From an uncultured bacterium (GTDB lineage Bacteria > Krumholzibacteriota > Krumholzibacteriia > LZORAL124-64-63), in assembly GCA_963727525.1 (NCBI GenBank), contig CAVSGO010000007.1, positions 320,001 through 384,000 on the forward strand: a DNA stretch of 64,000 nt, written 5' to 3'. Made by a program: the position numbers and the translations under genes. The notes under the pieces are model-generated. The model was given only the letters and a program-made list of their open reading frames with translations, did no database searches and was not told the DNA's origin. This document shows positions 17,417-57,220 of this stretch, piece after piece. Each line of letters opens with the position of its first letter. The first letter of the stretch is position 1.

Positions 17417-17447
17417 CGGATCGCGGCGGGACGATCACTCTAGGATC

Positions 17448-18635: not shown

Positions 18636-18740
18636 CCGACGCCCCGGGCCTTGCCAGGATGCGGCCAACACGCCAACTTTGCAGGGACCATCGGATTCGC
18701 CCCCGGCGGCCTCACCTTGCTTGCGAGGAGCGTGATCAAC

Positions 18741-34820: not shown

Positions 34821-37800
34821 ATGAAGACACCCGAGCGCATCCTCCAGGGATTGATCTTGCTGGCCGTCGCGGTGGGCCTGCCTGCCGCCGCCCTGGCCTT
34901 CGATCACCTCGAGATCACGGTGGTCAATCCTCACATCGTGGCCGGAAGACCGGCGGTGACCGTGCAGACGCCCTTCAGCGTCCAGGTGCGCGCCGTCAAT
35001 GGTGACGGTTCCACGGACACCAATGCCGACTTCATCAACGCCCAGCTGCAGTCGCCTGACGTGGCCGCCAATCTTCCGGCGTCCGCGTATCTGCAGAACG
35101 GTGAGCGGCAGTTCGACGGGGTCACCTTCCTAGCGCCGGGACAGCCGGTGCGCCTGCGTGTGTTCGACGCCGACGACGCCTCGGTGCCGACGGCCGAGGT
35201 GCAGATCAACTGCTACAACTTCGTGCACCACTTCCAGATTGCGGTGCCAACGGGCAACAAGTACGTCGACCAGGCCGTGAACGTCACCATCACCGCCCTC
35301 GATCAGGCGGGCGGCACGGTGCTGAACTACCGCGACGACGTCGTACTGACCGCACTCGTCGGCCATTTCAGCACCGGACCCAGTATCACGGTGTCGGGCC
35401 TGTCGTTCGCCAACGGCCAGGTCACGGTGCCGGTGACATTCTGGGGCACCGATCCAGTGACGCGCGAGAATACGCTCACGGCCACCGCCACTGTGATGTA
35501 TCCCGGCCAGACGACGCCGGCCGTGGGCAGCGCCGTGGTGTCGCCCCTGCTGCCTGGCCCGCTATCCGACATCATGCTGCTACTGCCGGGCGAGACGCTG
35601 ACACCCGGCGTGAGTCCCGGCAAGTCGGGCACGCCGAACTCCCAGACCTCGGGTGCGAGCTTTGGCGGTATCCGGGTCTACGCCACGGACCAGCGCTGGA
35701 ATCCCGTGATGAGCGGCCCGTATCCGAGCATCGGCTGGAGCAGTGACGATCCGGACGCCGGGGTCGTGCTCCCGCCTGCGGCCGTGATGGTCGGCAACCC
35801 GGAGACGAGCTACACCGCCACCCTGATCCGCTCCGGCACAACCCGCGTGACCGCCGACGCGTCGGGGGCGGTCAGCGCCAACAGCCGCAGCGATGTGGTG
35901 ATCAATCCCGAGGGCCTCGATCACTTCGAGTTCGATACTGGCATCTGGAATCCGACGGATGTGCAGATCACCACGATCCCGTTCAATATCCGCGTCATCG
36001 CGCGCGACTCCAACGGCAACGTCTTTCCCCTGAACGGCCAGGTGAGCCTGCGCGTCCGTATCGGCACGAGCGACGAGAGCGCCGACTACATCATCACGAA
36101 CAACTCCACGTTCCACAACGGCCAGCTCGACGCGCTGATCCAGGTGACCAAGCGCGGATTCTCGGCGCGCATCATCGTGGACAGCGGCGTGGTGGGCGAG
36201 TCGCCGACGTTCCAGGTGAACAACGGCCCCTGCGAGAAGATCCTGATGACCTTCCCGGGCGAGACCTGGGTGAACGGACTCAACGATCCCACCTTCGGGG
36301 GCAATCAGGGCGTGCCCAATGCGGTGGTCGCGGGTTCCATCATCACGCCGGTGACGATCCGTCCGGTCGACCGTTTCAACAACCTCGCGCCGGGTAACCG
36401 CAACGTGACATTCACCTGCCCGACCGGCTGGTTCCAGCTCCCCGACTATCCCGGCAACATCGTCGCCATTTCCAACCCGACCGATATCCGCGTGGTCTTC
36501 CGCACCGCGGTGGGCGCGCAGGTGCTGCGTGCGCAGTCGAGCGGCATCACGGCGAACAACTCGAGCCAGGTGACGGTGGCCCCGGCGGCGTGGAACCGCA
36601 TCGTGGTGCAGGCCCCGGGCGAGACACTGTCGCCGGGCATCTTCGACAGCGTCGAGGACGACGGCAAGCTCGGCGATCCGTCGTCCCAGGACGCCGGCGT
36701 GCCCTTCAACGTGCGCGTGTACGCCACGGACGACTACTGGAACCCCGTGAGCGACAGCTCGCCGGCGCTGCCCATGAGCGTCGACTTCACGAGCAGCGAC
36801 GCGCTGGCGATACTGCCGAGCAACCCGCAGACGCTCAACGACAACGTGGGCGATTTCCAGGTGGCCCTCGTCACCCTGGCCGACCCGAACCGGCAGACCA
36901 TCGAGGTGACCGACCGCCTCACCGGCCACGGTGCGTACACCACGATTCCCGTGCGCGCGGGCGTGATCGATCACTTCGACATCGGCGTCAACAATCATTC
37001 CAATCCCACGCCGGGCGATGTTCTCGATCCGATTCCCGACCATCGCGCCGGAAGCTGGTTGCCCAACGTCACGATCATCGCGCGCGACGTGTTCGGGAAC
37101 CACATCTCCGACTACACCGACGATGTGACGCTGTGGGTGAGCCACGGCACCGGCATACTCACGCCGACCAGTGTCGACATGGGTGCCGGTCTCGGAAGCG
37201 GCACCTACCAGGGCGCCTGGCGCGGACCGATCCAGATCACGCGATCAGGCGTGGACGTGCGGTTATTCGTGCGGGAGGAGACGTACGCTCACACCGACAG
37301 TTCGAACACGTTCACGGTCTTCGCCCAGGCCCAGGACTACGCGAAGATGCTGGTGCTGCTTCCCGGTGAGACGCCGACGCCCGGCATCTTGCCCGGCAAG
37401 GTGGGTACGCCGCTGCCTGTGCAGGCCGGCGACCCCGTGCACGCCACGGTCATGGCTACCGATGCCTGGTTCAACCTGGTGCCGGCGCGGCCGCAAGCGC
37501 ACTTCGCCGACAGCGGCTTCTTCCAGATGGTCACGCCGAACGATCAGGTGCTCGACCCTGATGGCACCGGCGAGATGGACCTCTACTTCAAGAGTGCCGC
37601 GTCGCACGACCTGCGGGTGAACGACCTCGTGACCCCGGCGATCGCCGACACGTCGACGATCTCGGTCACGGCGGGCGCCTTCGACCGCTTGATGGTCCTG
37701 CTGCCTGGCGAGACTCCGCAGCCGGGCGGACCCGAGTCCGACGGCAAGATCGGTACGCCGGCGCCGCAGACGGCCAGCCTCGAGTTCGATGTGCACATCC

Positions 37801-40800
37801 TGGGGACCGACCAGTTCTGGAACCTGGTGACCAATGCCGCCGAGCACGTGCACCTGGCCAGCGACGACGGCTCGCTCACGCCGACCAACCCGCTGAACAA
37901 CGATCAGCCCCTCGTCAGCGGCGAGATCGTCATGCCTATCTACCTCACGTCGCCGGGCTTCGTGACCCTGGCGGGATCGGCCCTCGACCATACCGATATC
38001 ACCGGACAGCAGGTGACGCTGCAGGTGGAGCAGGGGGCGATGTACCAGATCGACACGCCGGCGACGGCCTATGTCGGTCCGCCGAGCAACTTCTCTGTCA
38101 CGATCTCGCTGGTGGACGAGTTTGGCGTGCCCATGCCCGCCGCGAACAATTGGGTCACCATCGAGGCCTTGCGCAGCAACCTCGAGCCGGCTAGCAGCAC
38201 CCTGCAGGTCACCAGCGCGCAGCTCGTGAACGGCACGGTGACGATCGCCGATGAAGCTTACAACACGGTCGAGGACATCGTTGTGCGTATCACCGACATC
38301 TCGGGGCGCACCAGCTACAGCTCGACGATCCAGATGCTGGCCAACGGCCTGGAGTACGTCGTCTCCGCCGGCGGCACGACGCCGCGGGTAGGACCGCCGG
38401 CCACGTTCCCGGTGGCCGTCGTCTTGCGCGACGTGGACACTCATACCGTGATCGACGACGACCGCCGCATCTACGTGGGCGTGAACTCGTCGCTGGGCGG
38501 CCCCGGTCAGGGCGTCGTGGGTGTGGTGAGCCAGCGGCTCGACCATGGCGTGGTGGCGTTCCAGCAGAGCTACACTCGGGCCGAGAACATCTACGTGACG
38601 ATCCAGGACACGACGGGTCTGGATGGGTCGAGTCCCGTGTTCGCCGTCCGTCCCGACGGCTACAAACGTCTCCAGCTCGTGGCGCCCGGCGAGGTGGTGC
38701 AGGCTGGCGTACCGGCCTTCGAGGAGACAGGCAAGTCGGGCATGCCTACCACGCAACGCTCGGGCGAGCCCTTCCCGATGACCGCACGCGCCGTCGATCA
38801 GTACTGGAACCTTGCCGACACCACGAGCGTGGGCATCCTGCGCCTCGTGGCGAGCGACGGATCGTTCAGCGAGGACGGCAACCCCGAAGAAAACTACGTG
38901 CCGTTCATCAATGGCCGGCGCACCTTCAATGGCTATCTCACCGACGAGGGTACGGTGGATGTGACGGTGTACGACGAGCAGGATCTCAACAAACCGTCGC
39001 AGACCACCCACGTGCCGGTGGATCCGCCTTACGAGTACGAGATCACCGTCCCGGCGCAGGCGAGCACGGGACCGGTGCCAGGCTTCCAGGTGACGGTGAA
39101 GCTCGTGGATCCGGTCACCGGCAACGTCGTGCCCACGGCGATGAACCGCTTCCGGCTCATGCCGCTGCTGCCCAATCATGGCGCGGCCAACGGAGTGCTT
39201 GGCACCGTGGAGGGCCAGCTCGTCGGTGGCGTGTGCGTGATCAACCAGCAGAGCTACAGCACGGTCGAGGACATCATCATCCGCGTGGATGACGATTACG
39301 GCCGCGAAGCGTTCAGCTCCGTCATCGAGATGGACAGTGGCGGCCTCTACTACGCGGTGTCGATACCCGATAGTGCCCTGGTCGGACCGCCGGAGACGTT
39401 CAACCTGCGGGTCGAGCTGATCGACAGCAATACCGGCCAGCGCGTCACGACGCAGGATCGTCTGTTCACCATCCAGGTCATGAGCGCCCAGACCGGGCTG
39501 CCGGGCGCGGGCCACCTCGAGGTGTCGCAGGGCATCCTGCAGGCGGGGCTGCGCAACGTGGCCGAGGCCTATAGCCGTTCCGAGGATATCTTCGTCGCCG
39601 TGAGCGACACCTTCGGCGTGACCGGGCTCTCCAACACCTGCCGCATGCTCGCCGACGGGTTCAAACGCATCCAGATCGTGGCGCCGGGCGAGACGCCGGC
39701 GCCCGGCGCGCAGACCGGCACGGGCAAGACCGGCACGCCGCTGACGCAGCAGGCGGAGGTGCCGTTCACCGTGGTCGTGCGCGCTGTCGACCAGTACTGG
39801 AACCTCGTGCGCACGATCGACGACGGCGCCATCCACCTGGCCAGCAGCGGGGGCAACCTTGACATCGTCGATGCCGACGACGTGGACGCGCCGTTCATCG
39901 GCGGCAGCCGCGACATCGGCATCGTGCTCGGCGACCCGGGCCTGGTCTCGGTCTTCGCCACCGACGCGGTGCACGCCGAGGTCAGCTCGGGCCGTGTGGA
40001 CGTACCGGTGAACGAGGCCGAGTACCGCGTGATCCTGCCCTCGCCGGCGGTGGTCACGGCCGGCCCGCCCGCCACGTTCACGCTCACCGTGCGGCTGGTG
40101 AACCCGCTCACGGAGGAGCGGATCAACGCCGGCGGTCAGTTCGAGATGTCAGCGTTGCGGCCCGATCGCTCCGCCGCCACGTCCCAGCTCGGCATCACCG
40201 CCGGCACGCTCGTGGGCGGGGAGGCCGTGATCAGCGGCGAATCATATGCCGCGAGCGAGCCGATCGTGGTGCGGGTCCGCGACACCCGCGGGCGCACCTC
40301 GTACAGCGACGTGCTCACCGTCGTACCGGAAGGCGTTCGTTACGCGGTGGACATGCCCGACAGCGTGATCGCGGGCGAGAGCTTCGAGATGTCGGTGCAG
40401 CGCATCGACATCGTCACTGGACAGCTCGTGACCAGCGACGATCGTACCTTCGTGCTCACGGCCTTCAGCGGTAACTCGCCGCGTCCGAACCCTGCGCTGC
40501 AGCCGGCGGGCATCCTCGCCGACACGGTGGGGACCACCTTGAATGGCGTGAAGGTGTTCGCGCACCAGTCCTACGATCGGGCAGAACCGATCTTCTTCAA
40601 GGTGTCGGATGATACCGGCGAGCAGTATTTCACGGGTGTGATGAACGTGCTGCCGGCGCCGGTCTCGGTGTGTGAACTCAGCGCCGAGGACGTGCCGGGC
40701 CACGAGCTCGATCGCCCGCTGCGGCCCGCGGACCTCGTGTACTTGCAGGTGCGCACCACGGACCGTTGCGGCAACGCCGTGGCCAACCTGCCCATCACCT

Positions 40801-41585
40801 TCGACGTGCTCGATGGTGACGGTGGACTCGGTTCCGTGCGCGCCGCCTCGGCGTCGTTGCCGGCCGACGTCGACGGGCACGCGACCTGCCAGCTCCACGT
40901 GAGCAACTTCGGCAGCGCTGATCTCATGGTGCAGGCGCACGCCGGCGACGCCTACTCGCAGGTGCTGCAGCTCGACGTCCAGGGGCCGCCAATCACCGCG
41001 CTCGAGCTGAACCCGGACGCCACGACCTTCAGCGACGGCTACTACGTGCTACCGGGCACCCGGATCACGCTTGCCACGCGCGTGGTGGGGCCGGATCCGG
41101 TACAGGGCGTGTGGTTCGACGTCGACGTGACCGATACGCCGCGTCCCGGCACCCTGTACGCCGGCGCCTTCAGCCTGGAGTCGCTGGGTGGTGATGCGGC
41201 GCAGCCCGGTGTGCACGTGCTGCGGTTCTTCGCCGAGGAGACCGGAGGCGTGGCCGAGGCGGTGAAGTCCGTGACGCTGTACACGGCGGCCGCCATGACC
41301 ACGGACAGGCAGATCACCAACCGGCCGAATCCGTTCCATGCGGGACGCGAGTCGACCGTCATCCTCTTCAAGCCGGCCGCATCGGGCCCGGTCTCCGTCA
41401 CCATCTACGACCTCTACGGTGATGTGGTACGGACCGACCAGCTCTCGGGGCAGGCCGGCGTGGACAACCAGTACGTCTGGGACGGCCGCAATGGCGATGG
41501 TCGCATCGTCGGCAACGGCGGCTATATCTGCCGCGTGCAAGGCAGCGGCTATGACCTGCGCCGCAAGATCGCGGTGGTGAAGTGA
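34821..41585 (+). CDS. Giant (2254 aa) secreted repeat-rich Ig-like surface protein with FlgD-Ig/T9SS-like CTD
   Basis: Signal peptide MKTPERIL...ALA; seven 'PGE..PG..GKxGxP...A(T/V)DxxWN' repeats; six 'Y..P..VGPP..F' repeats; C-terminal NRPNPF...TIYDLYG...WDGRNGDG...RKIAVVK. Confidence 0.85.
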   Translation: MKTPERILQGLILLAVAVGLPAAALAFDHLEITVVNPHIVAGRPAVTVQTPFSVQVRAVNGDGSTDTNADFINAQLQSPDVAANLPASAYLQNGERQFDGVTFLAPGQPVRLRVFDADDASVPTAEVQINCYNFVHHFQIAVPTGNKYVDQAVNVTITALDQAGGTVLNYRDDVVLTALVGHFSTGPSITVSGLSFANGQVTVPVTFWGTDPVTRENTLTATATVMYPGQTTPAVGSAVVSPLLPGPLSDIMLLLPGETLTPGVSPGKSGTPNSQTSGASFGGIRVYATDQRWNPVMSGPYPSIGWSSDDPDAGVVLPPAAVMVGNPETSYTATLIRSGTTRVTADASGAVSANSRSDVVINPEGLDHFEFDTGIWNPTDVQITTIPFNIRVIARDSNGNVFPLNGQVSLRVRIGTSDESADYIITNNSTFHNGQLDALIQVTKRGFSARIIVDSGVVGESPTFQVNNGPCEKILMTFPGETWVNGLNDPTFGGNQGVPNAVVAGSIITPVTIRPVDRFNNLAPGNRNVTFTCPTGWFQLPDYPGNIVAISNPTDIRVVFRTAVGAQVLRAQSSGITANNSSQVTVAPAAWNRIVVQAPGETLSPGIFDSVEDDGKLGDPSSQDAGVPFNVRVYATDDYWNPVSDSSPALPMSVDFTSSDALAILPSNPQTLNDNVGDFQVALVTLADPNRQTIEVTDRLTGHGAYTTIPVRAGVIDHFDIGVNNHSNPTPGDVLDPIPDHRAGSWLPNVTIIARDVFGNHISDYTDDVTLWVSHGTGILTPTSVDMGAGLGSGTYQGAWRGPIQITRSGVDVRLFVREETYAHTDSSNTFTVFAQAQDYAKMLVLLPGETPTPGILPGKVGTPLPVQAGDPVHATVMATDAWFNLVPARPQAHFADSGFFQMVTPNDQVLDPDGTGEMDLYFKSAASHDLRVNDLVTPAIADTSTISVTAGAFDRLMVLLPGETPQPGGPESDGKIGTPAPQTASLEFDVHILGTDQFWNLVTNAAEHVHLASDDGSLTPTNPLNNDQPLVSGEIVMPIYLTSPGFVTLAGSALDHTDITGQQVTLQVEQGAMYQIDTPATAYVGPPSNFSVTISLVDEFGVPMPAANNWVTIEALRSNLEPASSTLQVTSAQLVNGTVTIADEAYNTVEDIVVRITDISGRTSYSSTIQMLANGLEYVVSAGGTTPRVGPPATFPVAVVLRDVDTHTVIDDDRRIYVGVNSSLGGPGQGVVGVVSQRLDHGVVAFQQSYTRAENIYVTIQDTTGLDGSSPVFAVRPDGYKRLQLVAPGEVVQAGVPAFEETGKSGMPTTQRSGEPFPMTARAVDQYWNLADTTSVGILRLVASDGSFSEDGNPEENYVPFINGRRTFNGYLTDEGTVDVTVYDEQDLNKPSQTTHVPVDPPYEYEITVPAQASTGPVPGFQVTVKLVDPVTGNVVPTAMNRFRLMPLLPNHGAANGVLGTVEGQLVGGVCVINQQSYSTVEDIIIRVDDDYGREAFSSVIEMDSGGLYYAVSIPDSALVGPPETFNLRVELIDSNTGQRVTTQDRLFTIQVMSAQTGLPGAGHLEVSQGILQAGLRNVAEAYSRSEDIFVAVSDTFGVTGLSNTCRMLADGFKRIQIVAPGETPAPGAQTGTGKTGTPLTQQAEVPFTVVVRAVDQYWNLVRTIDDGAIHLASSGGNLDIVDADDVDAPFIGGSRDIGIVLGDPGLVSVFATDAVHAEVSSGRVDVPVNEAEYRVILPSPAVVTAGPPATFTLTVRLVNPLTEERINAGGQFEMSALRPDRSAATSQLGITAGTLVGGEAVISGESYAASEPIVVRVRDTRGRTSYSDVLTVVPEGVRYAVDMPDSVIAGESFEMSVQRIDIVTGQLVTSDDRTFVLTAFSGNSPRPNPALQPAGILADTVGTTLNGVKVFAHQSYDRAEPIFFKVSDDTGEQYFTGVMNVLPAPVSVCELSAEDVPGHELDRPLRPADLVYLQVRTTDRCGNAVANLPITFDVLDGDGGLGSVRAASASLPADVDGHATCQLHVSNFGSADLMVQAHAGDAYSQVLQLDVQGPPITALELNPDATTFSDGYYVLPGTRITLATRVVGPDPVQGVWFDVDVTDTPRPGTLYAGAFSLESLGGDAAQPGVHVLRFFAEETGGVAEAVKSVTLYTAAAMTTDRQITNRPNPFHAGRESTVILFKPAASGPVSVTIYDLYGDVVRTDQLSGQAGVDNQYVWDGRNGDGRIVGNGGYICRVQGSGYDLRRKIAVVK

Positions 41586-41608
41586 TGCAGCGTACGACCG
41601 GAGGCACG

Positions 41609-42919
41609 ATGAACGCAACGAGGAGCATCCACGGACGGCGCCTCGCCCCGACCCTCGCGGTGATTGGCCTGGCGACCACCCTGCTGGCGCTGCCGTGCCT
41701 GGCGGCGGATACCGGCGGCACTCCCGGCGGCTACCTGCGCTATGGCGCGAGCGCACGCAGTCTCGCGCTCGGCAACGCCGTGGGTGGTCTGGCCGACGAT
41801 GCCGCCACCAGCTACTGGAATCCGGCGGGTCTGGCCTGGCTGCGCACGATGGAGCTGTCGGCCATGGGCGCGACGCTGATCTCGGACACGAAGTACGGCT
41901 TCGTGACCCTGGGCCTGCCCACCGAGCACTGGGGCACATTCGCCCTCAGCGGCACCTATACCAGGAGCGCCGATTTCGAGCGCACGACTCTCTTCGAGGA
42001 TCTCGACGAGACCTTCAGCGAGGGCGAAGGCATCTTCTCTCTGGCCTACGCCCGCGGTGGGCGGCGCTGGTCGTTCGGCGCGGCGGTGAAGACCGTCAGC
42101 CAGAGCATTGCCGGGTCCCAGGCCAACGGCACCGGCCTCGACCTCGGCGTGTCCCTGCGACCGCACCGCTCGTTGAGCCTGGGCATGAGCGTGCAGAACG
42201 CCATCGCGCCGAAGATCACGCTCGTCGAGGACGAGGAGGAGCTGCCCTGGAGCGTGCGCGGCGGCTTCGCCCTTCATTTTTTCCGCAACAAGTTGCAGGT
42301 GTCGGCCGACGGTGTGAAGACGCGCTGGATGGACACCAGCTACCGGGCCGGCCTCGAGGTATGGCCCACGCGGCCAGTGGCCATGCGTGCCGGCTACGAC
42401 GGCGAAAAGGACCAGTGGTCCGTGGGCGCCGGCATGCGCTGGGAGAACCTGCAGTTCGATTACGCCTACGTGAACACCGACCTGGGCGGCCAGAATGTCG
42501 TGAGCGCGACGCTGCGCTTCGGCGTGCCGTACGGCGTGAAGGTGGACCGCAACAAGGCCCTCTTCAGTCCGTCCGGCGCCGATCGCGAAGTGACCTTCGG
42601 CATCCGCACCGCCGTGCGCGGCGTGGTGGAGTCGTGGCGCGTGGAGATTCGTGACGACCACGGCAAGTCGGTGAAGGTGCTCCAGGGCGCGGGCGATCCG
42701 CCGTCCGAGGTAGCCTGGAACGGCGAGGACGGCGACGGCCGCCTGGTGGGCGACGGCGTCTACACGGCGCACGTCACGATCATCGACGATCTGGGTCAGG
42801 ACTGGGACTACGAGAGTGACGTCGAGGTGCTGGGCTTCCAGGAACGGACCCGGGCGCCCATCCGAGTGGAGATCGGCAGCGGTGCGGCAGGCGCCGCGGC
42901 AGGGAGTGACCAGCGATGA
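41609..42919 (+). CDS. PorV/PorQ-family (FadL-like) outer-membrane beta-barrel with C-terminal FlgD-Ig-like domain
   Basis: RBS GGAGG; signal peptide; YLRYGASARSLALGNA...DDAATSYWNPAGLA; barrel strands (GLDLGV, RAGLE, FDYAY); C-terminal FSPSG...WRVEIRD...WNGEDGDGRLVGDGVY. Confidence 0.8.
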   Translation: MNATRSIHGRRLAPTLAVIGLATTLLALPCLAADTGGTPGGYLRYGASARSLALGNAVGGLADDAATSYWNPAGLAWLRTMELSAMGATLISDTKYGFVTLGLPTEHWGTFALSGTYTRSADFERTTLFEDLDETFSEGEGIFSLAYARGGRRWSFGAAVKTVSQSIAGSQANGTGLDLGVSLRPHRSLSLGMSVQNAIAPKITLVEDEEELPWSVRGGFALHFFRNKLQVSADGVKTRWMDTSYRAGLEVWPTRPVAMRAGYDGEKDQWSVGAGMRWENLQFDYAYVNTDLGGQNVVSATLRFGVPYGVKVDRNKALFSPSGADREVTFGIRTAVRGVVESWRVEIRDDHGKSVKVLQGAGDPPSEVAWNGEDGDGRLVGDGVYTAHVTIIDDLGQDWDYESDVEVLGFQERTRAPIRVEIGSGAAGAAAGSDQR

Positions 42920-45900
42920 AGCGCAACACCATGATGGGTCTGATCGCGGCGGTGTGTCTGGCGACGGCAGGAGCCGCCACCGTCCGCGCAGGCCAGGAAC
43001 TGGCCGTGCCCACCGAGGCCGCCCTCTGGGAGGCCGCAGGCCAGGCGTACGCGGTCGGCGTCGACAAGTCGGCGGCGATGCAGCAGTACCGCCTCTTCGT
43101 CCAGACCTACGGCAAGAGTGACAAGGCGGCCCGGGCGCAGTACATGGTGGGCGAGTGCTACTTCGCCGCCAAGGACTGGGCCGGCGCCGTGCGCGAGTAC
43201 GGGCGCGTGAAGGACTACCGCGGCCGCGATGACTACCTCGAGGCCTCGGTGCTCCTGCGGCAGGGCGAGTGCCAGTTCAATCTCGGGCAGTTCGCCGACG
43301 CCATCGCGCTGTACAACCGCCTCCTCGACAAGTACGACGACACTTTCCTGCTAGCCGAGGGGCTCTACGAGATCGGCCAGGCATACATCGTCGACGGCAA
43401 CTGGCTCAAGCTGCGCGCGGCCTACCGCGAGCTGCTGGAGCGGCGGCCCGGCTACGCTGATCTGCCGCAAGTGAAGTTCGCCCTCGGCCTGTTCGCCTAC
43501 CAGGAGCAGGACTATGAGACCGCGCGCACCTACTTCGAGCAGGTGCCGAGCGACCGCGGCCTCTACTATCTGGGCCGCACGCTCGAGGACACGGGCCAGT
43601 ACATCCTGGCCATCCAGCGCTACAAGCAGGTCTTGCGGCGCCATGCCGACAGCCCGCTCGCCGACGACGTGGCCTTCAGTATCGCCGAGGCCTTCTATCG
43701 CTCCGGCCAGAACGACGTGGCCGTGCGCAGCTACCACGACTTCATCGAGAAGTATCCGGACAGCCCGTTCGTGCCCAATGCGCGCTACAAGATGGCGTGC
43801 GTCACTTTTCGCGAGAATCGGTACGACGAGTCGATCCGACAGCTCGAGGAGATCGTCAAGTCGTTCCCAGACAAGCAGGTGAGCGCCTACGCGCAGTACC
43901 TGATCGGCGATTGCTACATGCAGCTCCAGCGCACGAGCGAAGCGATCTTCGCCTACACCGATGTCGTGCGCCGATTCCCGGAGAGCACCGTGGCCAGCGC
44001 CGCGCTGCACAAGGTCATCTACGCCTACGCCAAGGAAGACAACTACGCGCAGGCCATCGTCCTGGCCGACGAGTTCCTGCAGCGTTATCCCGGCGATCCC
44101 CTGGCTCCGCGCGTGCGGGTGCTCAAGGGCTTCGGGCACTTCCAGCAGGAGGAGTACCCCCAGGCGATCATGGCCTTCCAGAACGTCGTGGACAAGCACG
44201 TGAACACCGACGTGGCCGAGCGCGCCCTCTTCCTTTCGACGCTGGCGTACTTCCGCATCGGACAGCTCGATCGCGTGATCACGAACTACAACTACATCGC
44301 CAGCAAGCTGCTACCGACGCCGAGCTACTGGCGCGGCCGCACCTACTATTACCTCGGAGAGGCCTATTTCGCCCAGGGGCTGTACCGCGAGGCCACGAGC
44401 ATGTACCGACTCGTGCTCACGGGCTACCCGCGCAGCAATGTTGCGGCGCCGGCGCTCCAGGGTCTGGTGGCATCGCTGAGCCGCACCGGCCAGTACGACC
44501 TCGCTCTGGAAGAGCAGGAGAAGTTCCTGCTGGCGCTCGCCAACTCCGACAGCGAGGACGGCACGAACAGCCTGGCCGTGGGTTCGATCTACTTCAACCA
44601 GCACAAGTACGAGGAGGCTCTCCACGAGTTCGAGGACTTCCTGAGCAAGAATCCCGACGGTCCGGCGGCCGCGTCGGCGCTCGCCAACCAGGGGGATTGC
44701 TATTACCGCCTGCAGTACTACGAGCAGGCCCTCGAGTCCTGGCAGACCCTGCTCACGCGCTTCCCCGACGCGCCGGAGGCCGGCGAGGCGCTCTACCGCA
44801 TCGCGGATACGCAATTCGGCCTCGGCAGGTTCGACGCCGCGGCGCGCAGCTACAGCCGCGTGCAGGCGCAGTTCGCCCAGGGCGCCCACGCCGCCGACGC
44901 CTCCTTCGGTCTGGCCAACTGCGCCTACAACCAGGGCAAGAACGATGATGCGATCGCGGCCTTCTCGCGTTTCGTCGACACCTATCCCAAGGATCCTCGT
45001 GTGGAGGACGCCGAGCTGGGCATCCAGAGCTGCTACTACCGCAGCGGCAAGGACATGGAAGCCTATCTCCAGGGTCATCCCGACAGTCCGCTGGCGGCCG
45101 ACGTCTACTGGAGCAAGGGTCAGGACGCATTCGCGGCCGGCGACTTCGCCACTGCGGCGCGCAACTTCGAGCGTGTGACCCTGGACTACCCGGATAGCGA
45201 GTCGGGACCTGGCGCTCTCTTCTATCTCGCCGAGAGCTACTACCGCGCGGAGTCGTTCGAGCAGGCGCTGGCCGGGTTCAACAACTTCACGACCACGCAC
45301 CCCACCCACGAGCTGAGCGAGCTGGCGCACCTGCGGTCGGCCACGATCCTCTTCAAGCTCGAGCGGTTCTCGGAGGCGGCCGCTGCCTACGAAACGCTGA
45401 CCGACCTCTTCCCGAGCGGCGAGTACACGGCGCTGGCCGCCTACAACGCCGCGATCTGCTACCAGCAGCTCGAGGACTGGCATGCCGCGATCGGCAGCCT
45501 CGTACGCTTCGCCGCCGACTTCCCCGACAGCGAGAACGCGAAGGGCGTGTGGCTGCAGATCGCCGGCATCTATCAGGAAGAGCTGGGGGACTACCCGCGC
45601 GCCGTGGAGGCGTACGACAAGGCCGCCGAGCGCGGCGAGACCTCGCCGGTCGAGGCGCGTTATCGCCAGGGCGAGTCGCTCGAGAAGTCGGGCGACGTCG
45701 ATGGGGCTCTGGAGCATTTCCAGCAAGCGGCTGCGGCCACCGGCGGCGCCGACCAGTTCCGTATCGCCAGCCTCGCGCAGATCGGGCAGATCAGCGAGGA
45801 CCGCGGCGACTGGGCCACCGCGATCGCCGCGTACGAGAAGATCGTCGCGGCGGGCGGCAAGGAGGAGTGGACGGCGATGGCGCAGGGGCGCATCGCCGCC

Positions 45901-45933
45901 ATCAAGGAGATGCAGGTGTCGAGCGGTAGCTAG
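42916..45933 (+). CDS. Large periplasmic tetratricopeptide-repeat protein (BamD/CpoB-like repeats)
   Basis: Signal peptide; many 'A.Y..G..YF....Y..A...Y...L..YPDS' units over 1005 aa; ATGA overlap with the PorV-like gene. Confidence 0.88.
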   Translation: MKRNTMMGLIAAVCLATAGAATVRAGQELAVPTEAALWEAAGQAYAVGVDKSAAMQQYRLFVQTYGKSDKAARAQYMVGECYFAAKDWAGAVREYGRVKDYRGRDDYLEASVLLRQGECQFNLGQFADAIALYNRLLDKYDDTFLLAEGLYEIGQAYIVDGNWLKLRAAYRELLERRPGYADLPQVKFALGLFAYQEQDYETARTYFEQVPSDRGLYYLGRTLEDTGQYILAIQRYKQVLRRHADSPLADDVAFSIAEAFYRSGQNDVAVRSYHDFIEKYPDSPFVPNARYKMACVTFRENRYDESIRQLEEIVKSFPDKQVSAYAQYLIGDCYMQLQRTSEAIFAYTDVVRRFPESTVASAALHKVIYAYAKEDNYAQAIVLADEFLQRYPGDPLAPRVRVLKGFGHFQQEEYPQAIMAFQNVVDKHVNTDVAERALFLSTLAYFRIGQLDRVITNYNYIASKLLPTPSYWRGRTYYYLGEAYFAQGLYREATSMYRLVLTGYPRSNVAAPALQGLVASLSRTGQYDLALEEQEKFLLALANSDSEDGTNSLAVGSIYFNQHKYEEALHEFEDFLSKNPDGPAAASALANQGDCYYRLQYYEQALESWQTLLTRFPDAPEAGEALYRIADTQFGLGRFDAAARSYSRVQAQFAQGAHAADASFGLANCAYNQGKNDDAIAAFSRFVDTYPKDPRVEDAELGIQSCYYRSGKDMEAYLQGHPDSPLAADVYWSKGQDAFAAGDFATAARNFERVTLDYPDSESGPGALFYLAESYYRAESFEQALAGFNNFTTTHPTHELSELAHLRSATILFKLERFSEAAAAYETLTDLFPSGEYTALAAYNAAICYQQLEDWHAAIGSLVRFAADFPDSENAKGVWLQIAGIYQEELGDYPRAVEAYDKAAERGETSPVEARYRQGESLEKSGDVDGALEHFQQAAAATGGADQFRIASLAQIGQISEDRGDWATAIAAYEKIVAAGGKEEWTAMAQGRIAAIKEMQVSSGS

Positions 45934-45958
45934 GTCGCCGGCATCCGTTGGCGGTGCA

Positions 45959-45996
45959 CGATCCCCGGGGACCCGGTTCCCGGGGATCGCGTTTTT
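45959..45996 (+). terminator. Intrinsic terminator after the TPR gene
   Basis: GATCCCCGGG...CCCGGGGATC stem followed by GCGTTTTT. Confidence 0.7.
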
Positions 45997-46056
45997 GGGC
46001 CACCACGACCGGGCGCCACGAGGAAAGGTCAGGAAGTTTCGACCCCTGCGTGGACG

Positions 46057-46072
46057 TGGCACGCTGGTTGCC
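46057..46072 (+). promoter_or_regulatory. sigma54 (-24/-12) promoter upstream of exbB
   Basis: TGGCACG-CTGG-TTGC matches the consensus TGGCACG-N4-TTGC; intergenic, downstream of a terminator and about 170 nt before exbB. Confidence 0.7.
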
Positions 46073-46243
46073 GAGGGACGGGGTAGCAGAAGGAATATCG
46101 GCCGCAATCGGGTCATAACGGCGGTGCGCCGCCACGGGATCTGGCAAAGAGCAAGGCCCGGCCCCGGACCCGGATCGCGGGATTGCAGAACGCAACCGTC
46201 GGCGCGAGGACGCCGACGCCCCAACAGGAAAGGTCAGGCTGCC

Positions 46244-46954
46244 ATGTTCGGCGACATGTCCATCATCCAGGTCTTCCAGTCCTCCATGACCATGGTGGTG
46301 CTGCTGCTCTGCTCGATCGTGACGTTCGCGTACGTCGTGGAGCGCAGTCTCTACTTCCAGACGTCGTCGTGCAACGTGCGACGGTTCATGCAGGAGCTGT
46401 CCGGCCACATGAAGGCCGGCAACCCGCGCGCGGCTCTCGAGTACTGCCAGAAGACCAACAAGCCCATCGGGCGGGTCATGGCCCAGGCCCTGGCGACCAT
46501 GACGCGCAGCCGCGAGGAGCAGACCCAGCGGCTGGAGACGGCCATCGAGCTGGAGCAGGTGGAAATGGAGCGGCACCTGGGCGTGCTCGGCACCATGGCC
46601 AACATCGCCCCGCTGCTCGGCCTCTTCGGTACGGTGGTCGGCATCATCCGCGCCTTCGCCGACATCGCGCGCACCGGTTCCGGTGGCGGCGCCGTGGTGG
46701 CGATGGGCGTGTCCGAGGCTCTGCTTACGACCGCTGCGGGCATCATCATCGCCGTGCTGGCCACGGTGACGTTCAACTTCTTCGTGCGTCGCGTGCGCAC
46801 GCGCGTGGCGCAGCTCGAGGATGCCCGGGAGACCTGGTTCACCCTGTGGCACCAGTACCAACGCCAGACACGTAGCGGGGCGGCGCCGACGCGCGCCACC
46901 GCCGCCCAGACCAAGACGACGTCCCGTCCCGAGCCCGCTGGCATCCTGAGCTAA
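46244..46954 (+). CDS. exbB: MotA/TolQ/ExbB proton channel family protein
   Basis: LGTMANIAPLLGLFGTVVGIIRAF, GVSEALLTTAAGIIIA; RBS AGGAAAGG. Confidence 0.9.
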   Translation: MFGDMSIIQVFQSSMTMVVLLLCSIVTFAYVVERSLYFQTSSCNVRRFMQELSGHMKAGNPRAALEYCQKTNKPIGRVMAQALATMTRSREEQTQRLETAIELEQVEMERHLGVLGTMANIAPLLGLFGTVVGIIRAFADIARTGSGGGAVVAMGVSEALLTTAAGIIIAVLATVTFNFFVRRVRTRVAQLEDARETWFTLWHQYQRQTRSGAAPTRATAAQTKTTSRPEPAGILS

Positions 46955-46968
46955 GACGAGGAGCCGAT

Positions 46969-47394
46969 ATGGCCCGCAAGAACAGCAGCCTGAACGACTC
47001 GCTCACAGACGCCAACATCACACCGCTGGCGGACGTGACGACAACCCTGATCGTGGTCTTCCTGATCACGATGCCCGCTCTCATGTGGAACGGCTTCGAC
47101 GTCAACCAGGCCGAGGCCGGGGGCAAGGACCCCGTGGTCCAGCCGACCGAAGAAGTCGATGAGGATCTGCTGACGATCGCCGTCACGCCGGCGGGGTACT
47201 TGCTCAACGGCAAGGCCACGGACGAGGCCGATCTCGGCGCGGAACTGCGCTCGCGCCTCCAGACGCGCGACGATCGCACCGTGGTGATCGTGCCGGACGA
47301 CGTCGTGCCCCTGGGCCGCGTCGTCACCGCCCTGGATATCGCCAAGGCCAGCGGGGCCTCGAGTCTGGCCCTGCTCAACCGGATCGGGGGCTAG
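46969..47394 (+). CDS. exbD: ExbD/TolR family protein (canonical Asp retained)
   Basis: NITPLADVTTTLIVVFLIT; C-terminal PDDVVPLGRVVTALDIAKASG. Confidence 0.88.
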   Translation: MARKNSSLNDSLTDANITPLADVTTTLIVVFLITMPALMWNGFDVNQAEAGGKDPVVQPTEEVDEDLLTIAVTPAGYLLNGKATDEADLGAELRSRLQTRDDRTVVIVPDDVVPLGRVVTALDIAKASGASSLALLNRIGG

Positions 47395-47396
47395 AC

Positions 47397-47813
47397 GTGG
47401 CACGCCGCAATGGTCTGAAAATCGAGACCCGGGTGACGGTGGTGCCCGTCATCAACGTCTCCCTGGTCGTGGTCCTCACGCTCATGGTGATCGCGCCGTT
47501 CCTCAGCGGTGAGGATCAGGAGATCGATCTGCCCCAGGCTATGGCTAGCCAGGCCGATGACACCGACAACATCGAGATCATGTTCACGCACGATCGGCGC
47601 GTGTTGATCGACGAGGCGGAGATCGCGATCGGCGACCTGCCCGACCTGCTGGCGAACACGTTCGCCATGATGCCGCACAGCGTGGCGGTGGTGAAGGCGG
47701 ACCAGAGCCTGCCCTATGGCGAGGTGGAGACGCTGATTGCCGCGATCGAGGAGGCCGGGGCGCCGCGCATCGCCCTCGCCACGAAACCCAAGCAGGAGGA
47801 GGCCGGTCGATGA
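47397..47813 (+). CDS. exbD: Second ExbD/TolR family protein with Asn in place of the conserved TM Asp
   Basis: TVVPVINVSLVVVLTLMVIAP, IDLPQA, KADQSLPYGEV...AGAPRIALAT. Confidence 0.85.
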   Translation: MARRNGLKIETRVTVVPVINVSLVVVLTLMVIAPFLSGEDQEIDLPQAMASQADDTDNIEIMFTHDRRVLIDEAEIAIGDLPDLLANTFAMMPHSVAVVKADQSLPYGEVETLIAAIEEAGAPRIALATKPKQEEAGR

Positions 47814-49123
47814 TGCAGTACGCCATCGACCGCCGGCGCCAGACCCGCGGCGGCTTCGCGGCGAGCTTGGGAGCGCACGTCCTGGCGATCCTGCTGCTCG
47901 GACTGATGATCGGGCACCAGGCCGTCCAGCGCCTGGAGGACGAACTCACCGAGATCTCCTATATCGAGGCGCGCTACGGCGAGGACGTGGCGGCCAAGGT
48001 GAAGCTGAAGGACCCCATGCTGAACAAGCCGGCGCCGCCGGGACCGGTCGGGCCTGGCATCACCACCGATTCGGCCGTGAAGCCCAAGGAAGCGCCACCG
48101 GGACCGCCGGCACCAGTGCTCGCGCCCGAGCTGCCGCCGGCGACGCCCCGGCCGCAACCGCAACTCGCACAGGCCGCGGCGCCGCAGATCGCGCCGGTCA
48201 CGAAGCCGGTGCGCACGCTCGAACAGGCGCCGGTGCTCGATGCGCGTGACGCGCCCGCACCCGCGCGGCGTGTGATCGATACCGACAAGCTGAAAGACAG
48301 CCTGGCCGGCAAGCTCGTCGAGGCTCAGCCGAGGACGCTGCGCCCGACTCCGGTCGCCGACCGCGAGGCTTTCAAGCCCGTCAACGGCAATCTCCGCGAC
48401 CGCGGCGGCCGCGGACCCTCGGGAGCCGACCCGGTTGTCTCGGCGGCACCCCGGCAGGATCCCGGCACCGTGGTCGAGGCTCCGGCATCCCTCGGCGGGG
48501 CCAGCCTCAGCAGCCGAGCCTCGGCCGGCAGCTATGTGGCCCCGGCATCGTCCCTCGCCCCGGCCGGGGTGACGCAGGGCTCGATGGCCGGCGGCGCCGT
48601 GCTCGACATCGCCGGGCCGGCATCAGGCGGCGGCGGCGGCGCTCGCAAGGGCCGCAAGACGATCCTCAATTACGGGTCCGGCGGTGGCGGCGGCGGCGGG
48701 CTCGTGGGCCGCAGCGGTCGTCTCGCCGAACCCCCGGCCAGCCGGGCCATCGTCAACGACCCCGCGCCGGCGACCAGCGACGACAAGGCCCAGGTGGCCG
48801 AGGCCAAGGTGTCCGCGGAGAAGGGCGTCGGCATGACCATCACTGGCCAGATCGCCGGCCGCAAGATCCTGCACCGGGTAGCCCCGGGGTACTCGGATGC
48901 GGCGCGTCGCAATGGCTGGGAAGGCGTGGTGGCCGTGCGTTTCACCGTGCTGCCCGACGGCCGCGTGAAGGACAACATGTTCTTCGAGCAGACCTCTGTG
49001 CACCGCGATCTCAACCAGGCCGCCATGGCGGCCATCAAGCAGTTCCGGTTCGCATCACTGCCCTCGGACCAGTCGGCCGTCGAGCAGTGGGGCGTGATCA
49101 CCATCGTCTTCCGATTGAACTAG
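47810..49123 (+). CDS. tonB: Energy transducer TonB family protein
   Basis: N-terminal TM with SxxxH (ASLGAHVL); long Pro/Ala/Gly-rich linker; TonB_C PGYSDAARRNGWEGVVAVRFTVLPDGRV...AAMAAIKQFRF. Confidence 0.88.
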   Translation: MMQYAIDRRRQTRGGFAASLGAHVLAILLLGLMIGHQAVQRLEDELTEISYIEARYGEDVAAKVKLKDPMLNKPAPPGPVGPGITTDSAVKPKEAPPGPPAPVLAPELPPATPRPQPQLAQAAAPQIAPVTKPVRTLEQAPVLDARDAPAPARRVIDTDKLKDSLAGKLVEAQPRTLRPTPVADREAFKPVNGNLRDRGGRGPSGADPVVSAAPRQDPGTVVEAPASLGGASLSSRASAGSYVAPASSLAPAGVTQGSMAGGAVLDIAGPASGGGGGARKGRKTILNYGSGGGGGGGLVGRSGRLAEPPASRAIVNDPAPATSDDKAQVAEAKVSAEKGVGMTITGQIAGRKILHRVAPGYSDAARRNGWEGVVAVRFTVLPDGRVKDNMFFEQTSVHRDLNQAAMAAIKQFRFASLPSDQSAVEQWGVITIVFRLN

Positions 49124-49143
49124 AGCTTCAGGAGCAGACGACC

Positions 49144-50091
49144 ATGAGCAAGCGCATCACGATTTCCGGTCTCGCGACCGCATTGATCCTGCTGGCGGGC
49201 GGGGCCGTGGCCCAGACGGCGACCAACGACTCCACGGGTGCACAGTGGACGCAGGCCGGCGAATCGGGCGCGGCCCTGCCGGAGATGGTGGTCGAGGCGC
49301 AGAACAAGGTGCGGCAGCAGATCGAGAAGACGAACTTCGCCATGGAGCTGAGCGCGGCCGTGGTCGATACATTCTACACGCCCATGGACGATCAGGCTCT
49401 CGGCGTGAGTCCGGTGAGCGGGTTGCAGCCGTACCTCAACAACCTCGAGCCGCTGTCCAGCGACCAGCCGCCGCACTGCTGGCTGCCGGAGATGACGAGA
49501 ACCCCGGTGGCGACCTTCTATCCCGGTGAACCCGAGGGCCACAAGATCAAGCAGTGGAACCTCACGGTCACCGATTTTCGCGGTAGCCCCTGCCGCACGT
49601 ACCAGGGCGGCGGCAACCCGCCGAAAGCCGTGTCCTGGGATGGGCACACCAACGCGGGCGAGATCCTGCGTGTCGGCTACCCGTACAGCTACGTCTTCCA
49701 GCTCACCGACAAGGGCACCAACACGTACAACTACGCCGGCGCCAGTTTCCGCATCCCGGCGCTCGACTACCGTAGGGACGGCGACCGCATGCTCGAGATC
49801 GCGGGCGGGGAGATCTTCGCGCGAGAACAAAGCGAGCTGACGGATTCTGGCAAGGCGTGGCTCACCCGGGCCGCCGACGAGATCCGGCGCCATCCCTACT
49901 CGCCGGTGCGCGTCACGGTGACCGCCGAGACCAAGGACCTCGCCGCCCGGCGCGCGGATGCCGCCGCGGGCTTCCTCGCCACGACGATGATCCTGCCCCG
50001 GGAGCAGGTGGAGACGGAGGCGGTGCAGAAGGCGGATCTGCGGGCGGAGATGGACGGCACGGTCGCCATCGCCATCCAGCACGCGGATTGA
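49144..50091 (+). CDS. Secreted/periplasmic protein with TonB-box-like motif, FlgD-Ig-like domain and degenerate OmpA-like C-terminal domain
   Basis: RBS CAGGAG; signal peptide; LPEMVVEA; WNLTVTDFRG...GNPPKAVSWDG; IFAREQSELT...LAARRADAAAGFL. Confidence 0.65.
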   Translation: MSKRITISGLATALILLAGGAVAQTATNDSTGAQWTQAGESGAALPEMVVEAQNKVRQQIEKTNFAMELSAAVVDTFYTPMDDQALGVSPVSGLQPYLNNLEPLSSDQPPHCWLPEMTRTPVATFYPGEPEGHKIKQWNLTVTDFRGSPCRTYQGGGNPPKAVSWDGHTNAGEILRVGYPYSYVFQLTDKGTNTYNYAGASFRIPALDYRRDGDRMLEIAGGEIFAREQSELTDSGKAWLTRAADEIRRHPYSPVRVTVTAETKDLAARRADAAAGFLATTMILPREQVETEAVQKADLRAEMDGTVAIAIQHAD

Positions 50092-56500: not shown

Positions 56501-57220
56501 ATCGTGGAATGGGCGGGCGTGGATCACTACAACCCCATCGGCAATCCGGAGACCTTCGAGGTCATCCTCAACGCCGACGGGTCGATCGTCTACCAGTACG
56601 CCACGGTGGCGGTCGGCAATAGCTGCACGATCGGCATCGAGAACGCCGACGGCACCGACGGTCTGCAGGCGGTGTACAACGCGGATTACGTCACCAGCGG
56701 CATGGCGATCCGCTTCGCGGTGGATCCCACGCTGCGCTGGCTGAGCGTGAGTCCGGTGTCCGGCAGTGTTCCGGCCGGCGGCTCGACCCAGGTCACCCTC
56801 CAGTTCGATGCGACGGAACTGCCGGTGGGTGTGTACTCGGCGAACCTGCTGGTGGGAACCAATGACCAGGCCAACCGGCTCGTGACGCTTCCCGTCACGT
56901 TCTCCGTCGGCGACGCGACGGCGGTCACCGACGCATTGCCGCGCAGCCTGGTGTTCTCCGGCGCCGCGCCGAACCCGTTCAATCCCATGACTAGCCTCAA
57001 GTTCGCGTTGCCGCACAGCGCGCACGTGGATCTGAGGATCTACGACATCAGCGGCCGGCTGGTGCGCTCGCTCGTGAGCGACGTGCGGCCGGCGGGCGAC
57101 AACGAGGTGCAGTGGAACGGCACCGACGCGGCCGGTCGCGGCGTGGCGTCGGGCACGTACTACGCGCGCCTGACCTACGAGGGCACGGTGGCGACCCGGT
57201 CGCTCGTACTCGTGCGCTAG
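53567..57220 (+). CDS. Secreted subtilisin-like serine peptidase (S8, bacillopeptidase F-like) with carboxypeptidase-regulatory domains, nidogen-like domain and FlgD-Ig/T9SS-like CTD
   Basis: Catalytic triad LDTGV, HGTHTMG, SGTSMAGPHVAG; SAGNEG; IAPFWDDL; C-terminal PNPFNPMT...RSLVLVR. Confidence 0.93.
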   Translation: MRMVKAITLLTLLVLVGQTALAGTFSPGLEKQVRNLRGSDEIKVLVVLRDQADIATLNHDLHVSKATRMVRHATVMGVLQDTADRSQGALLSDLAAHKAAGGIVGYTPHWLVNAVVVRGTVDALREIAARADVETIEPDLQVELIEPIPSEKPHPSSPLLGIGTTPGVQSINAPRVWNELGINGTGVIVGELDTGVDGNHPALAARWQGNFADPSTAWYDAANLGDPSFPVDRHYHGTHTMGTVTGLAPDDTIGVAPGAHWIATNCINMSTGPEFDNAVIASFEFMADPDGDPNTTADVPCVVQNSWGVNEGFTGYFDCDSRWWAAIDNCEAAGVCVTWSAGNEGPGGTSLRSPADRAETPYNCFSVGATITTAPFTIADFSSRGPSGCGGAFATKPEVSAPGVDVYSAEPGGGYQYLSGTSMAGPHVAGIVALMCSANPDLDVDTIKQVLMDTAHDLGTPGEDNTYGWGFVDAYDAVLAVISGYGRAQGVISDASTGNPIAGATVSVDGRPNFTTTQADGSYFLMLPADSYTFRVNAFGYAEGTINVTVLADDVVDASGQLTALPSAMISGRVYDYTGALVPGATVRALDTPVPAAVADGSGFYSLSLPIGATYDLVGRAVGFGAQLQTVNLTGNLTLDFTLPELTAEDFETGDFLQYPWEMSGNAPWVTTTNDPYEGTYCAMSGDINDSQSSTMSVTVDILAPQDLTFAYKVSSEATYDFLRFFDNGTEIVNWSGTVPWAVYTYAATAGIHTFQWSYTKDGSLSTGDDAGYVDFIEFPTLGEAQLVMDTSGFDVTAAPGSVVQRTLDIGNAGDGTLTYLFTTQYDPQGVPDRVADVPFHEVEKGKDDPNSGTSPVANFGGPDGFGYSWIDSNEPNGPVFDWVDITGVGTNPGGGDDSNYGPFNLGFDFPFYGQAYSSVRVCTNGFISFTSTVATYTNQAIPLTDEPNCLIAPFWDDLNLNNAGTMYYYADTANSRFIVEWAGVDHYNPIGNPETFEVILNADGSIVYQYATVAVGNSCTIGIENADGTDGLQAVYNADYVTSGMAIRFAVDPTLRWLSVSPVSGSVPAGGSTQVTLQFDATELPVGVYSANLLVGTNDQANRLVTLPVTFSVGDATAVTDALPRSLVFSGAAPNPFNPMTSLKFALPHSAHVDLRIYDISGRLVRSLVSDVRPAGDNEVQWNGTDAAGRGVASGTYYARLTYEGTVATRSLVLVR

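Follow-up and report, generated by a model that had tools for sequence, protein, structure and literature searches.

Eight genes of an uncultured Krumholzibacteriota bacterium join a PorV-type outer membrane barrel and its large surface protein to a Ton/Tol-type motor. They lie in a 64,000-nucleotide stretch (the window), which covers contig positions 320001-384000 of a 4.66-Mb genome that is 96.7% complete and has ~67% G+C. Open reading frames and profile scans place all eight genes on the + strand at window positions 34821-50091, and the block is a real conserved unit present in three old paralogous lineages of the phylum. There is an even chance, in our estimate, that these genes encode one accessory trans-envelope machine in which the motor serves the PorV-type barrel and a surface protein carrying a type IX secretion system (T9SS) C-terminal domain (CTD).

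The first gene (34821-41585, +) encodes the surface protein, here called the cargo, with 2254 residues, immunoglobulin (Ig)-like repeats and a T9SS type-A-like CTD. It overlaps by 4 nt the gene for a 445-residue PorV/PorQ-family barrel (41582-42919, +; NF033709), which in turn overlaps by 4 nt the gene for a 1005-residue tetratricopeptide repeat (TPR) protein (42916-45933, +; TPR_6, E 3e-80; TIGR02795). The motor genes follow, also on the + strand, beginning with a 236-residue ExbB/TolQ-type proton-channel protein (46244-46954; PF01618, E 6.5e-29). Shortly before its ATG stands AGGAAAGG; an alternative open reading frame in another frame (46183-46875) was rejected as ExbB because it has no family match. 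Two ExbD/TolR paralogues, ExbD1 (46969-47394; PF02472, E 3.4e-16) and ExbD2 (47397-47813; PF02472, E 1.4e-17), precede a 437-residue TonB/TolA-type transducer (47810-49123; PF03544, E 1.3e-13; TIGR01352, 54.8 bits). The last gene, orf8, starts at 49144 (or 49087), ends at 50091 (+) and encodes 315 residues. The exbB-exbD1, exbD1-exbD2 and tonB-orf8 gaps are 14, 2 and 20 nt, and exbD2 and tonB overlap by 4 nt. Coordinates, strand and family matches bear out the initial annotation, which had described eight co-oriented genes that mostly overlap or are tightly spaced.

Profile searches of the cargo located a FlgD_ig/CTD region at residues 2169-2251, with PF13860 (FlgD_ig, 2179-2242) scoring 33.4 bits (cut-off 27) and TIGR04183 22.3 bits (cut-off 23); no family matched the remainder of the protein. 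The C terminus has the sequence pattern typical of a CTD and ends in KIAVVK. FlgD, matching the CTD, was the sole phmmer match for the whole cargo. The N-terminal 720 residues gave nothing usable in a profile comparison with PDB sequences or in Pfam scans of 24 members, and the nearest language-model look-alikes of the cargo are Big_1/invasin-type Ig proteins, which provide a lead only. In the second of the three lineages the cargo has only ~1000-1130 residues.

The barrel protein was assigned by hidden Markov model (HMM) and by predicted structure. Residues 51-317 score 133.4 bits against NF033709, above the family cut-off of 90, and are below the equivalog cut-offs of PorV (NF033710; 38.6 versus 250 bits) and PorQ (NF033711; 72.5 versus 220 bits). 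The closest structures to the AlphaFold2 (AF2) model (pLDDT, predicted local distance difference test, score 85) are PorV chains, ahead of FadL, with E 2.4e-11 and TMt 0.64 for 8gl6_F and E 2.5e-10 and TMt 0.65 for 6h3i_F. HMM and modeled fold thus both place the protein in the PorV/PorQ family. The barrel spans residues ~50-317 and is followed by an extra C-terminal FlgD_ig/CTD-like beta-sandwich (~325-416) with the conserved tail RTRxPIRVEISG. The canonical PorV encoded next to PorU in the same genome has 309 residues and lacks this domain. The extra domain has homologues in the cargo CTD (E 5e-8) and in orf8, whose middle domain matches it at E 2e-9. This mutual homology of three domains in three proteins of the block supports a single machine, in which they would serve as periplasmic handles.

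The orf8 protein consists of a signal peptide, a variable linker, a conserved island (LPEMVVEAQN, residues 45-54), ~55 conserved unfolded residues and two folded domains. In the AF2 model residues 111-315 have a pLDDT >90, and residues 1-110 are of low confidence and unfolded. The folded part is an Ig-like beta-sandwich (~120-220) followed by an OmpA-like alpha/beta domain (~221-315). Foldseek returned 6jfw_A as the best match (E 5.5e-8), then OprF, MotB/MotS and Pal, all of which are OmpA-like peptidoglycan-binding domains. No Cys lipobox is present in orf8. Within the island, V50 and E51 have conservation scores of 0.95 and 0.92 among 37 sequences from the three lineages, compared with 0.11-0.4 in the columns of the preceding linker. 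The island resembles the TonB boxes that precede the plugs of the genome's own receptors (AIDVEAERA, EEVVVTASR and DDVVVSASR), a likeness that makes it a putative TonB-box-like motif. A complex prediction for TonB residues 325-437 with orf8 residues 24-315, based on custom alignments, gave a score of 0.01 and a mark of 0.32, which speaks neither for nor against binding. A family search with orf8 scored 8000 candidates, of which 234 are members at E <= 1e-5. Among the 120 members listed no Pfam domain is present, and 38 of the 40 listed members that carry a source name are called 'hypothetical protein'.

The TPR protein begins with a signal peptide, and its repeats resemble those of CpoB/YbgF and BamD, with TIGR02795 scoring 339.8 bits over 11 stretches. 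A sub-threshold match to TPR_Slam repeats (E 1.3e-12, 48.5 bits) has no stretch that passes alone; Slam/type XI systems combine TPR repeats with a DUF560 barrel, whereas the barrel of the present block is of the PorV family. In the motor half, PF01618, PF02472 (twice) and PF03544 are all matched above their cut-offs. The membrane helix of ExbD1 retains the Asp (PLADV) that has a functional role in ExbD proteins, and this residue is conserved among the aligned orthologues. At the same position the ExbD2 of lineage 2 also has Asp, and lineages 1 and 3 have Asn there. The sequences suggest that the two ExbD proteins form an asymmetric pair. Both score higher on the TolR model than on ExbD models, and the ExbD2 score against the TolR model TIGR02801 (62.8 bits) is below the cut-off of 127. 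TonB has an N-terminal membrane helix in which S19 and H23 are invariant in 39 aligned rows, a Pro/Ala/Gly-rich linker of ~290 residues and a TonB_C domain at residues 358-436. The SHLS/His motif of TonB-type helices is described as the motor-binding site (PMC12204202). With the ExbD1 Asp and TonB S19 and H23 all conserved, the motor looks functional.

Conservation of the block was measured in two overlapping sets of loci. A full-length orthologue of the PorV-like barrel (44-63% identity) was found in 18 of 40 relatives, many of which also have a second full-length paralogue at ~30%. Some genomes hold two copies of the module, which has been duplicated together as well as conserved. The first set comprised 20 loci around PorV-like orthologues, 16 from the first lineage and 4 from the second. 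All eight genes occur in order in 13 of the 16 first-lineage loci, and the other three are curtailed: contig ends interrupt L077 and L085, and in L071 the cause is a 4.5-kb insert plus the end of the locus. The second-lineage loci (L086-L089, 25-37% identity) keep the order, with eight genes found in L089 and seven in L086-L088, where exbD1 was too divergent for tblastn. The second set was built from one genome per species with a PorV-like profile and contains 59 loci (its L093 is the contig of L070 in the first set). All eight genes are present in order in 35 of these, including a third lineage (L139-L141) at 36-40% identity; 18 others are curtailed by contig ends and collinear as far as they go, and six are distant matches to the barrel only. 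The synteny of exbB-exbD-tonB with porV and the TPR gene, on which the initial annotation had made its proposal depend, therefore recurs in relatives. Wherever a locus reaches far enough, throughout three deep paralogous lineages, the two halves of the block, cargo-porV-TPR and motor, are found together. Kept as it is across the phylum, the gene order is far beyond chance. Conservation does not extend to the flanks: among 79 loci the upstream 699-residue gene recurs in none, the downstream deaminase in none and BipA in three. An 835-residue upstream gene was considered as a further member and rejected; it encodes a PAS hybrid histidine kinase, and its 25-39% matches elsewhere were taken as generic domain similarity. 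The ~4.5-kb insert of L071 lies between the TPR gene and exbB and is also seen in L121 and L122 (~14400-18870), the loci representing two species. Part of the insert has 25% identity to the window's PAS hybrid histidine kinase.

Phylogenetic trees of ExbB and the barrel were used to follow the two halves separately. The ExbB tree contained 28 rows, and rows longer than 300 residues were reduced to their last 240. ExbB proteins of the three lineages form one clade (support 98/97) apart from four of the five other ExbB paralogues of the genome, those at L027, L033, L034 and L036. The barrel tree contained 29 rows and only the barrel part of each protein. It unites lineages 1 and 3 (100/99) and splits all motor- or TPR-linked barrels from canonical PorV (92/89).

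The distribution of the block in the phylum is patchy. The orf8 profile matches 130 of 201 genomes and 56 of 80 genera; among the 125 genomes that are at least 90% complete, 86 have a match. SprA was found in 195 of the 201 genomes and in all 125 of the more complete ones, so that 71 of the 201 sampled genomes have no orf8 and 39 of the 125 have SprA without it. The block always travels with its own particular cargo. Since the module is absent from these 39 good genomes, all of which have SprA, it is accessory and dedicated to its cargo, and is not a general T9SS motor.

The genome search for T9SS components that the initial annotation had pointed to had a mixed outcome, with SprA and PorU-PorV found, GldL, GldM and GldN undetected and GldK matched only in part. 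SprA (480 bits summed over a 2280-residue frame) lies at contig positions 606746-613564, which agrees with the earlier observation that the window itself has no sprA. PorU (436.5 bits, cut-off 420) is directly upstream of a PorV-family gene outside the block. Above the cut-off the genome has seven PorV-family matches, and its further CTD-type matches number at least 50. The GldL, GldM and GldN profiles had no match in the genome in a search run without a positive-control genome, and a divergence beyond the reach of the HMMs is possible. The Pfam GldM domains PF12081 and PF12080 were also absent from the genome, and GldM was found in none of the 201 phylum genomes, again with no positive control. 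The GldK search, likewise made without a positive control, returned only FGE-sulfatase-domain matches (82-105 bits, cut-off 350). These were rejected as a hidden gldKLMN operon, as only the sulfatase-modifying domain is matched and the neighbors have no GldL, GldM or GldN matches. A complete GldKLMN motor, which the initial annotation had named among the things that would count against its proposal, was not detected.

The genome also encodes other Ton and Tol systems. A canonical TolQ-TolR-TolA-TolB-Pal-CpoB operon is present at L035, its TolB a PD40 protein and its Pal an OmpA-domain protein; with this operon complete, a Tol-Pal identity of the block was rejected. Three more TonB systems are located at L027, L034 and L036. 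PorV-family barrels stand beside ExbB-ExbD sets twice more in the genome, at L027 and, weakly, at L033, in support of a functional connection between barrel and motor.

The mechanism that we infer for the block, including every protein contact and the direction of work, is modeled on better known systems. ExbB and the two different ExbD proteins would form a proton-driven motor that powers a long TonB-like arm. The cargo would cross the outer membrane through the genome's SprA translocon, and its CTD would then be held by the PorV-family barrel, by analogy with the PorV-PorU and PorQ-PorZ anchoring pairs. The extra Ig/CTD-like domain of the barrel would be periplasmic, a feature that canonical PorV lacks. 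The orf8 protein is a candidate coupler: its Ig domain is homologous to that of the barrel, its Pal-like domain would bind the wall, and its N-terminal strand resembles a TonB box. The TPR protein may act as a periplasmic scaffold or coupler. The TonB arm would grip orf8, the TPR protein or both, and deliver proton-motive work to the complex of PorV-like barrel and cargo. This work might serve to release the loaded barrel from the translocon and put it in place or else, as in Tol-Pal, to tether and reposition the barrel against the wall. On one view of the T9SS, its energy-requiring step is the removal of loaded PorV from SprA. Precedents exist for this scheme: TonB-like domains have been modeled onto the giant TPR protein GltD of the Myxococcus Agl-Glt machinery (PMC11761067), and the TonB-dependent transporter Oar is reported as needed for export of the protein PopC (PMC6434023).

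A number of observations weigh against a single machine. The TPR-exbB gap is 310 nt long and contains a terminator-like hairpin (45959-45989, +) 26 nt 3' of the TPR stop codon, with a 14-bp stem including 10 GC pairs, followed by CGTTTTTGGG. Terminator-type sites across the scan numbered 6 compared with 5.2 expected from shuffles, which is not a significant count; this hairpin stands out by the length of its stem. Because of the gap and the strong hairpin, cargo-porV-TPR and the exbB set may be two transcripts here. Scans for other signals gave no Rfam match at gathering thresholds in the whole window and no sigma-70 promoter site, FCB-type (Fibrobacteres-Chlorobi-Bacteroidetes) promoters being outside the coverage of the scan. 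The TonB of the block also has possible clients elsewhere, namely 10 Plug-domain proteins in the genome; none lies within 320001-384000, as expected from the initial annotation, which had seen no TonB-dependent receptor in the window. Because TPR-ExbB-ExbD-ExbD-TonB occurs without PorV, both at L036 and in Fibrobacter succinogenes (FSU_2397-2403), the motor half could have a job of its own. Other weak points concern orf8 and the trees. A TonB-box-like first strand is readable at the mature N terminus of the cargo as well (FDHLEITVVNP), and for this reason the motif in orf8 proves nothing by itself. Cell-wall binding by orf8 is uncertain because the Arg of the LAxxRA stretch is not retained in lineage 2 and the OmpA-like domain has no confident Pfam match (E 0.0021). 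Canonical TolQ joins the module ExbB clade on a very long branch and blurs it, a placement that may be an artefact, and the barrel tree leaves lineage 2 unresolved relative to lineages 1 and 3.

The gap, the hairpin, the Plug-domain proteins and the PorV-free motor clusters (PMC6851124 for F. succinogenes) all fit a different account, in which the block is two separate neighbors, a T9SS attachment set of cargo, PorV-like anchor and TPR helper, and an ordinary Ton system whose OmpA-like accessory and motor serve receptors elsewhere. We consider this account unlikely, though the most serious competitor, since the halves stay joined across three lineages while the flanks change, ExbB diverges along with the module, one domain of orf8 recurs in the barrel and the cargo CTD, and locus coordinates give a TPR-exbB gap of only 25-31 bp in several relatives. 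Adhesin movement offers another explanation, in which an Agl-Glt-type, force-bearing machine drags or tensions an Ig-repeat adhesin anchored by PorV, so that the cell can move over a surface or attach. The composition of the block matches the Glt core of one TolQ-like, two TolR-like and one TonB-like protein with a ~1000-residue TPR protein (PMC3169522), TonB-like domains bind the TPR protein GltD in the published model (PMC11761067), the TonB linker is long and the cargo resembles an Ig-repeat adhesin, the last as a lead only. The Glt models are far below their cut-offs, however (GltE, NF033758, 18.9 versus 225 bits; AgmX/PglI tail, NF033768, 21.6 versus 40), no cytoplasmic track proteins are seen in the block and the lineage 2 cargo is short, and this explanation is accordingly improbable.

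Slightly less probable again is a receptor-less device for TonB-dependent uptake, with the FadL-like PorV barrel as the channel, orf8 as a plug in trans and the surface protein capturing the substrate. The barrel fold is also FadL-like, the conserved unfolded N-terminal region of orf8 (~90 residues) could insert into a barrel, and PorV-family barrels directly adjoin plug-bearing receptors at L027 and L029. Against uptake, the block has no plug domain, the barrel passes the PorV family cut-off with PorV as its best structural match, and we know of no FadL-type channel that needs TonB. The broadest alternative makes the block the lineage's replacement for GldLM/PorLM, powering all type IX secretion. 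The undetected GldL, GldM and GldN, the absence of GldM matches from all 201 genomes, the near-universal SprA and the many CTD proteins would suit it. The genomes with SprA and no orf8, the constant pairing of the block with one particular cargo and GldLM searches made without a positive control leave it a very remote prospect. The initial annotation had proposed that CTD-cargo export or surface assembly is coupled to an ExbBD-TonB motor. That proposal is partly supported: the block is a conserved, motor-linked PorV/cargo module in a lineage with no detectable GldLM, but the support does not extend to a general motor of the lineage.

The block was compared with the closest known systems. Its T9SS side resembles the shuttle and attachment parts formed by PorV and CTD substrates, with a PorV/PorQ-family barrel, a neighbor carrying a type-A-like CTD, and SprA and PorU-PorV in the genome. 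The block differs in that its barrel is far below the PorV and PorQ equivalog cut-offs and has an added periplasmic CTD-like domain, and in its linkage to ExbB-ExbD-TonB and not to GldKLMN, which is undetected. With Ton systems it shares ExbB, ExbD and TonB_C, the conserved S/H pair in the TonB helix and the conserved Asp in the ExbD1 helix. Unlike them, the block has no plug-bearing receptor, has two unlike ExbD proteins and a TonB linker of ~290 residues, and its candidate TonB-box carrier is a soluble Ig/OmpA-like protein, orf8. TolB carries an N-terminal TolA-binding strand, and the N-terminal strand motif of orf8 is placed where TolB has that strand. Further likenesses to Tol-Pal and PorE are the CpoB-type repeats of the TPR protein, the Pal-like fold of orf8, ExbD proteins nearer the TolR model and the long-branch association of ExbB with TolQ; PorE is read as a CpoB-TolB-Pal fusion (PMC12204202). 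Tol-Pal differs in that the block has no beta-propeller (PD40/WD40), orf8 has no lipobox, and the TolR and TolA models are below their cut-offs. The Myxococcus Agl-Glt core is alike in motor composition and in its very large periplasmic TPR protein (PMC3169522, PMC11761067). The F. succinogenes cluster shares the same two features; its TPR genes FSU_2397/2398 and FSU_2400-2403 (ExbB, ExbD, ExbD, TonB) are described as rising on cellulose, with no assigned receptor (PMC6851124). In the excerpts of these sources, no PorV-type barrel, CTD cargo or orf8-type protein is described for either system, and the Glt models score below their cut-offs here. Titles and abstracts of the literature searched on T9SS, PorV/PorQ and TonB contain no description of a PorV-Ton gene block, and no paper was found in a literature search for Krumholzibacteri* with T9SS.

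Related gene arrangements were recorded at other loci, and those that pair a PorV-family barrel with ExbB count in favor of a single machine. L027 (contig 663001-683000, genes 3975-15505) encodes a 1035-residue TonB-dependent receptor and a 949-residue protein with a weak PorZ-like CTD, followed by a 310-residue PorV-family protein with the best score in the genome (205.8 bits), a 529-residue GWxTD protein, ExbB, ExbD, ExbD and a 206-residue TonB. L033 (contig 1292001-1308000, 3989-9713, - strand) encodes a TolA/TonB-like protein, ExbB, ExbD, a DNRLRE-domain protein, a BamG-like barrel and a TPR protein. Its barrel is a weak PorV-family match (E 8.5e-4, 19 bits versus 90), and the locus is a weak third case of a motor beside a FadL/PorV-like barrel. 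L034 (contig 1739001-1756000) contains a receptor, a Por_Secre_tail protein, DUF3450, a DUF3450-ExbB fusion, ExbB, ExbD, TonB and a TPR protein. We take it to resemble a Vibrio TonB2-type cluster into which a CTD protein is inserted at this locus. At L028 (G000:C2:48001-68000, 3835-14333) the gene for a 2819-residue protein of DUF11 repeats, which has a FlgD_ig CTD, runs into the start of a gene for a 680-residue fusion of a PorV-family barrel and TPR repeats, the latter at the C terminus. In Fermentibacteria, a PorV-TPR fusion of ~640 residues is followed by ExbB, ExbD, TonB and a ~1150-residue TPR protein (L145), and a second fusion stands beside ExbB (L146), where ExbB and a ~1180-residue TPR protein are the only parts scored. 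An Eisenbacteria locus (L143) has a PorV-TPR fusion and ExbB and then ends.

Elsewhere in the window are three more secreted enzymes with a FlgD_ig CTD, a C25 gingipain-like peptidase (194-4945), an M14 carboxypeptidase (5883-8444) and an S8 subtilase (53567-57220), and a Tricorn-like protease (57446-60703). Positions 10001-12000 have a G+C of 0.55 compared with ~0.67 elsewhere and no Rfam match. This low-G+C stretch has on one side a - strand gene that ends at 10179 and on the other a sigma-54 activator gene with its start at 11496.

These results describe a phylum that has translocon and sortase, PorV paralogues and many proteins with a CTD, yet no detectable GldLM. They also introduce orf8 as a new, unannotated family in which a TonB-box-like strand precedes an Ig domain and an OmpA-like fold. 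The block is a testable entry to the role of the widespread TPR-ExbB-ExbD-ExbD-TonB clusters of the FCB group, and to what powers PorV-dependent steps outside Bacteroidota. Surveys place complete T9SS in Bacteroidetes only (TXSScan preprint, 10.1101/031039, as far as its excerpts go). A wider proposal, which we put forward as speculative and unlikely, is that Ton/Tol-type motors in Krumholzibacteriota and neighboring candidate phyla, where no GldLM was detectable, extract loaded PorV-type barrels from SprA and place them, with one ExbB-ExbD-TonB set for each specialized PorV paralogue and with the CTD-like domain of the barrel and orf8 as the coupling pieces. To our knowledge, GldLM/PorLM is the only motor known to the type IX field. 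If the wider proposal were true, type IX secretion outside Bacteroidota would run on a different class of 5:2 motor.

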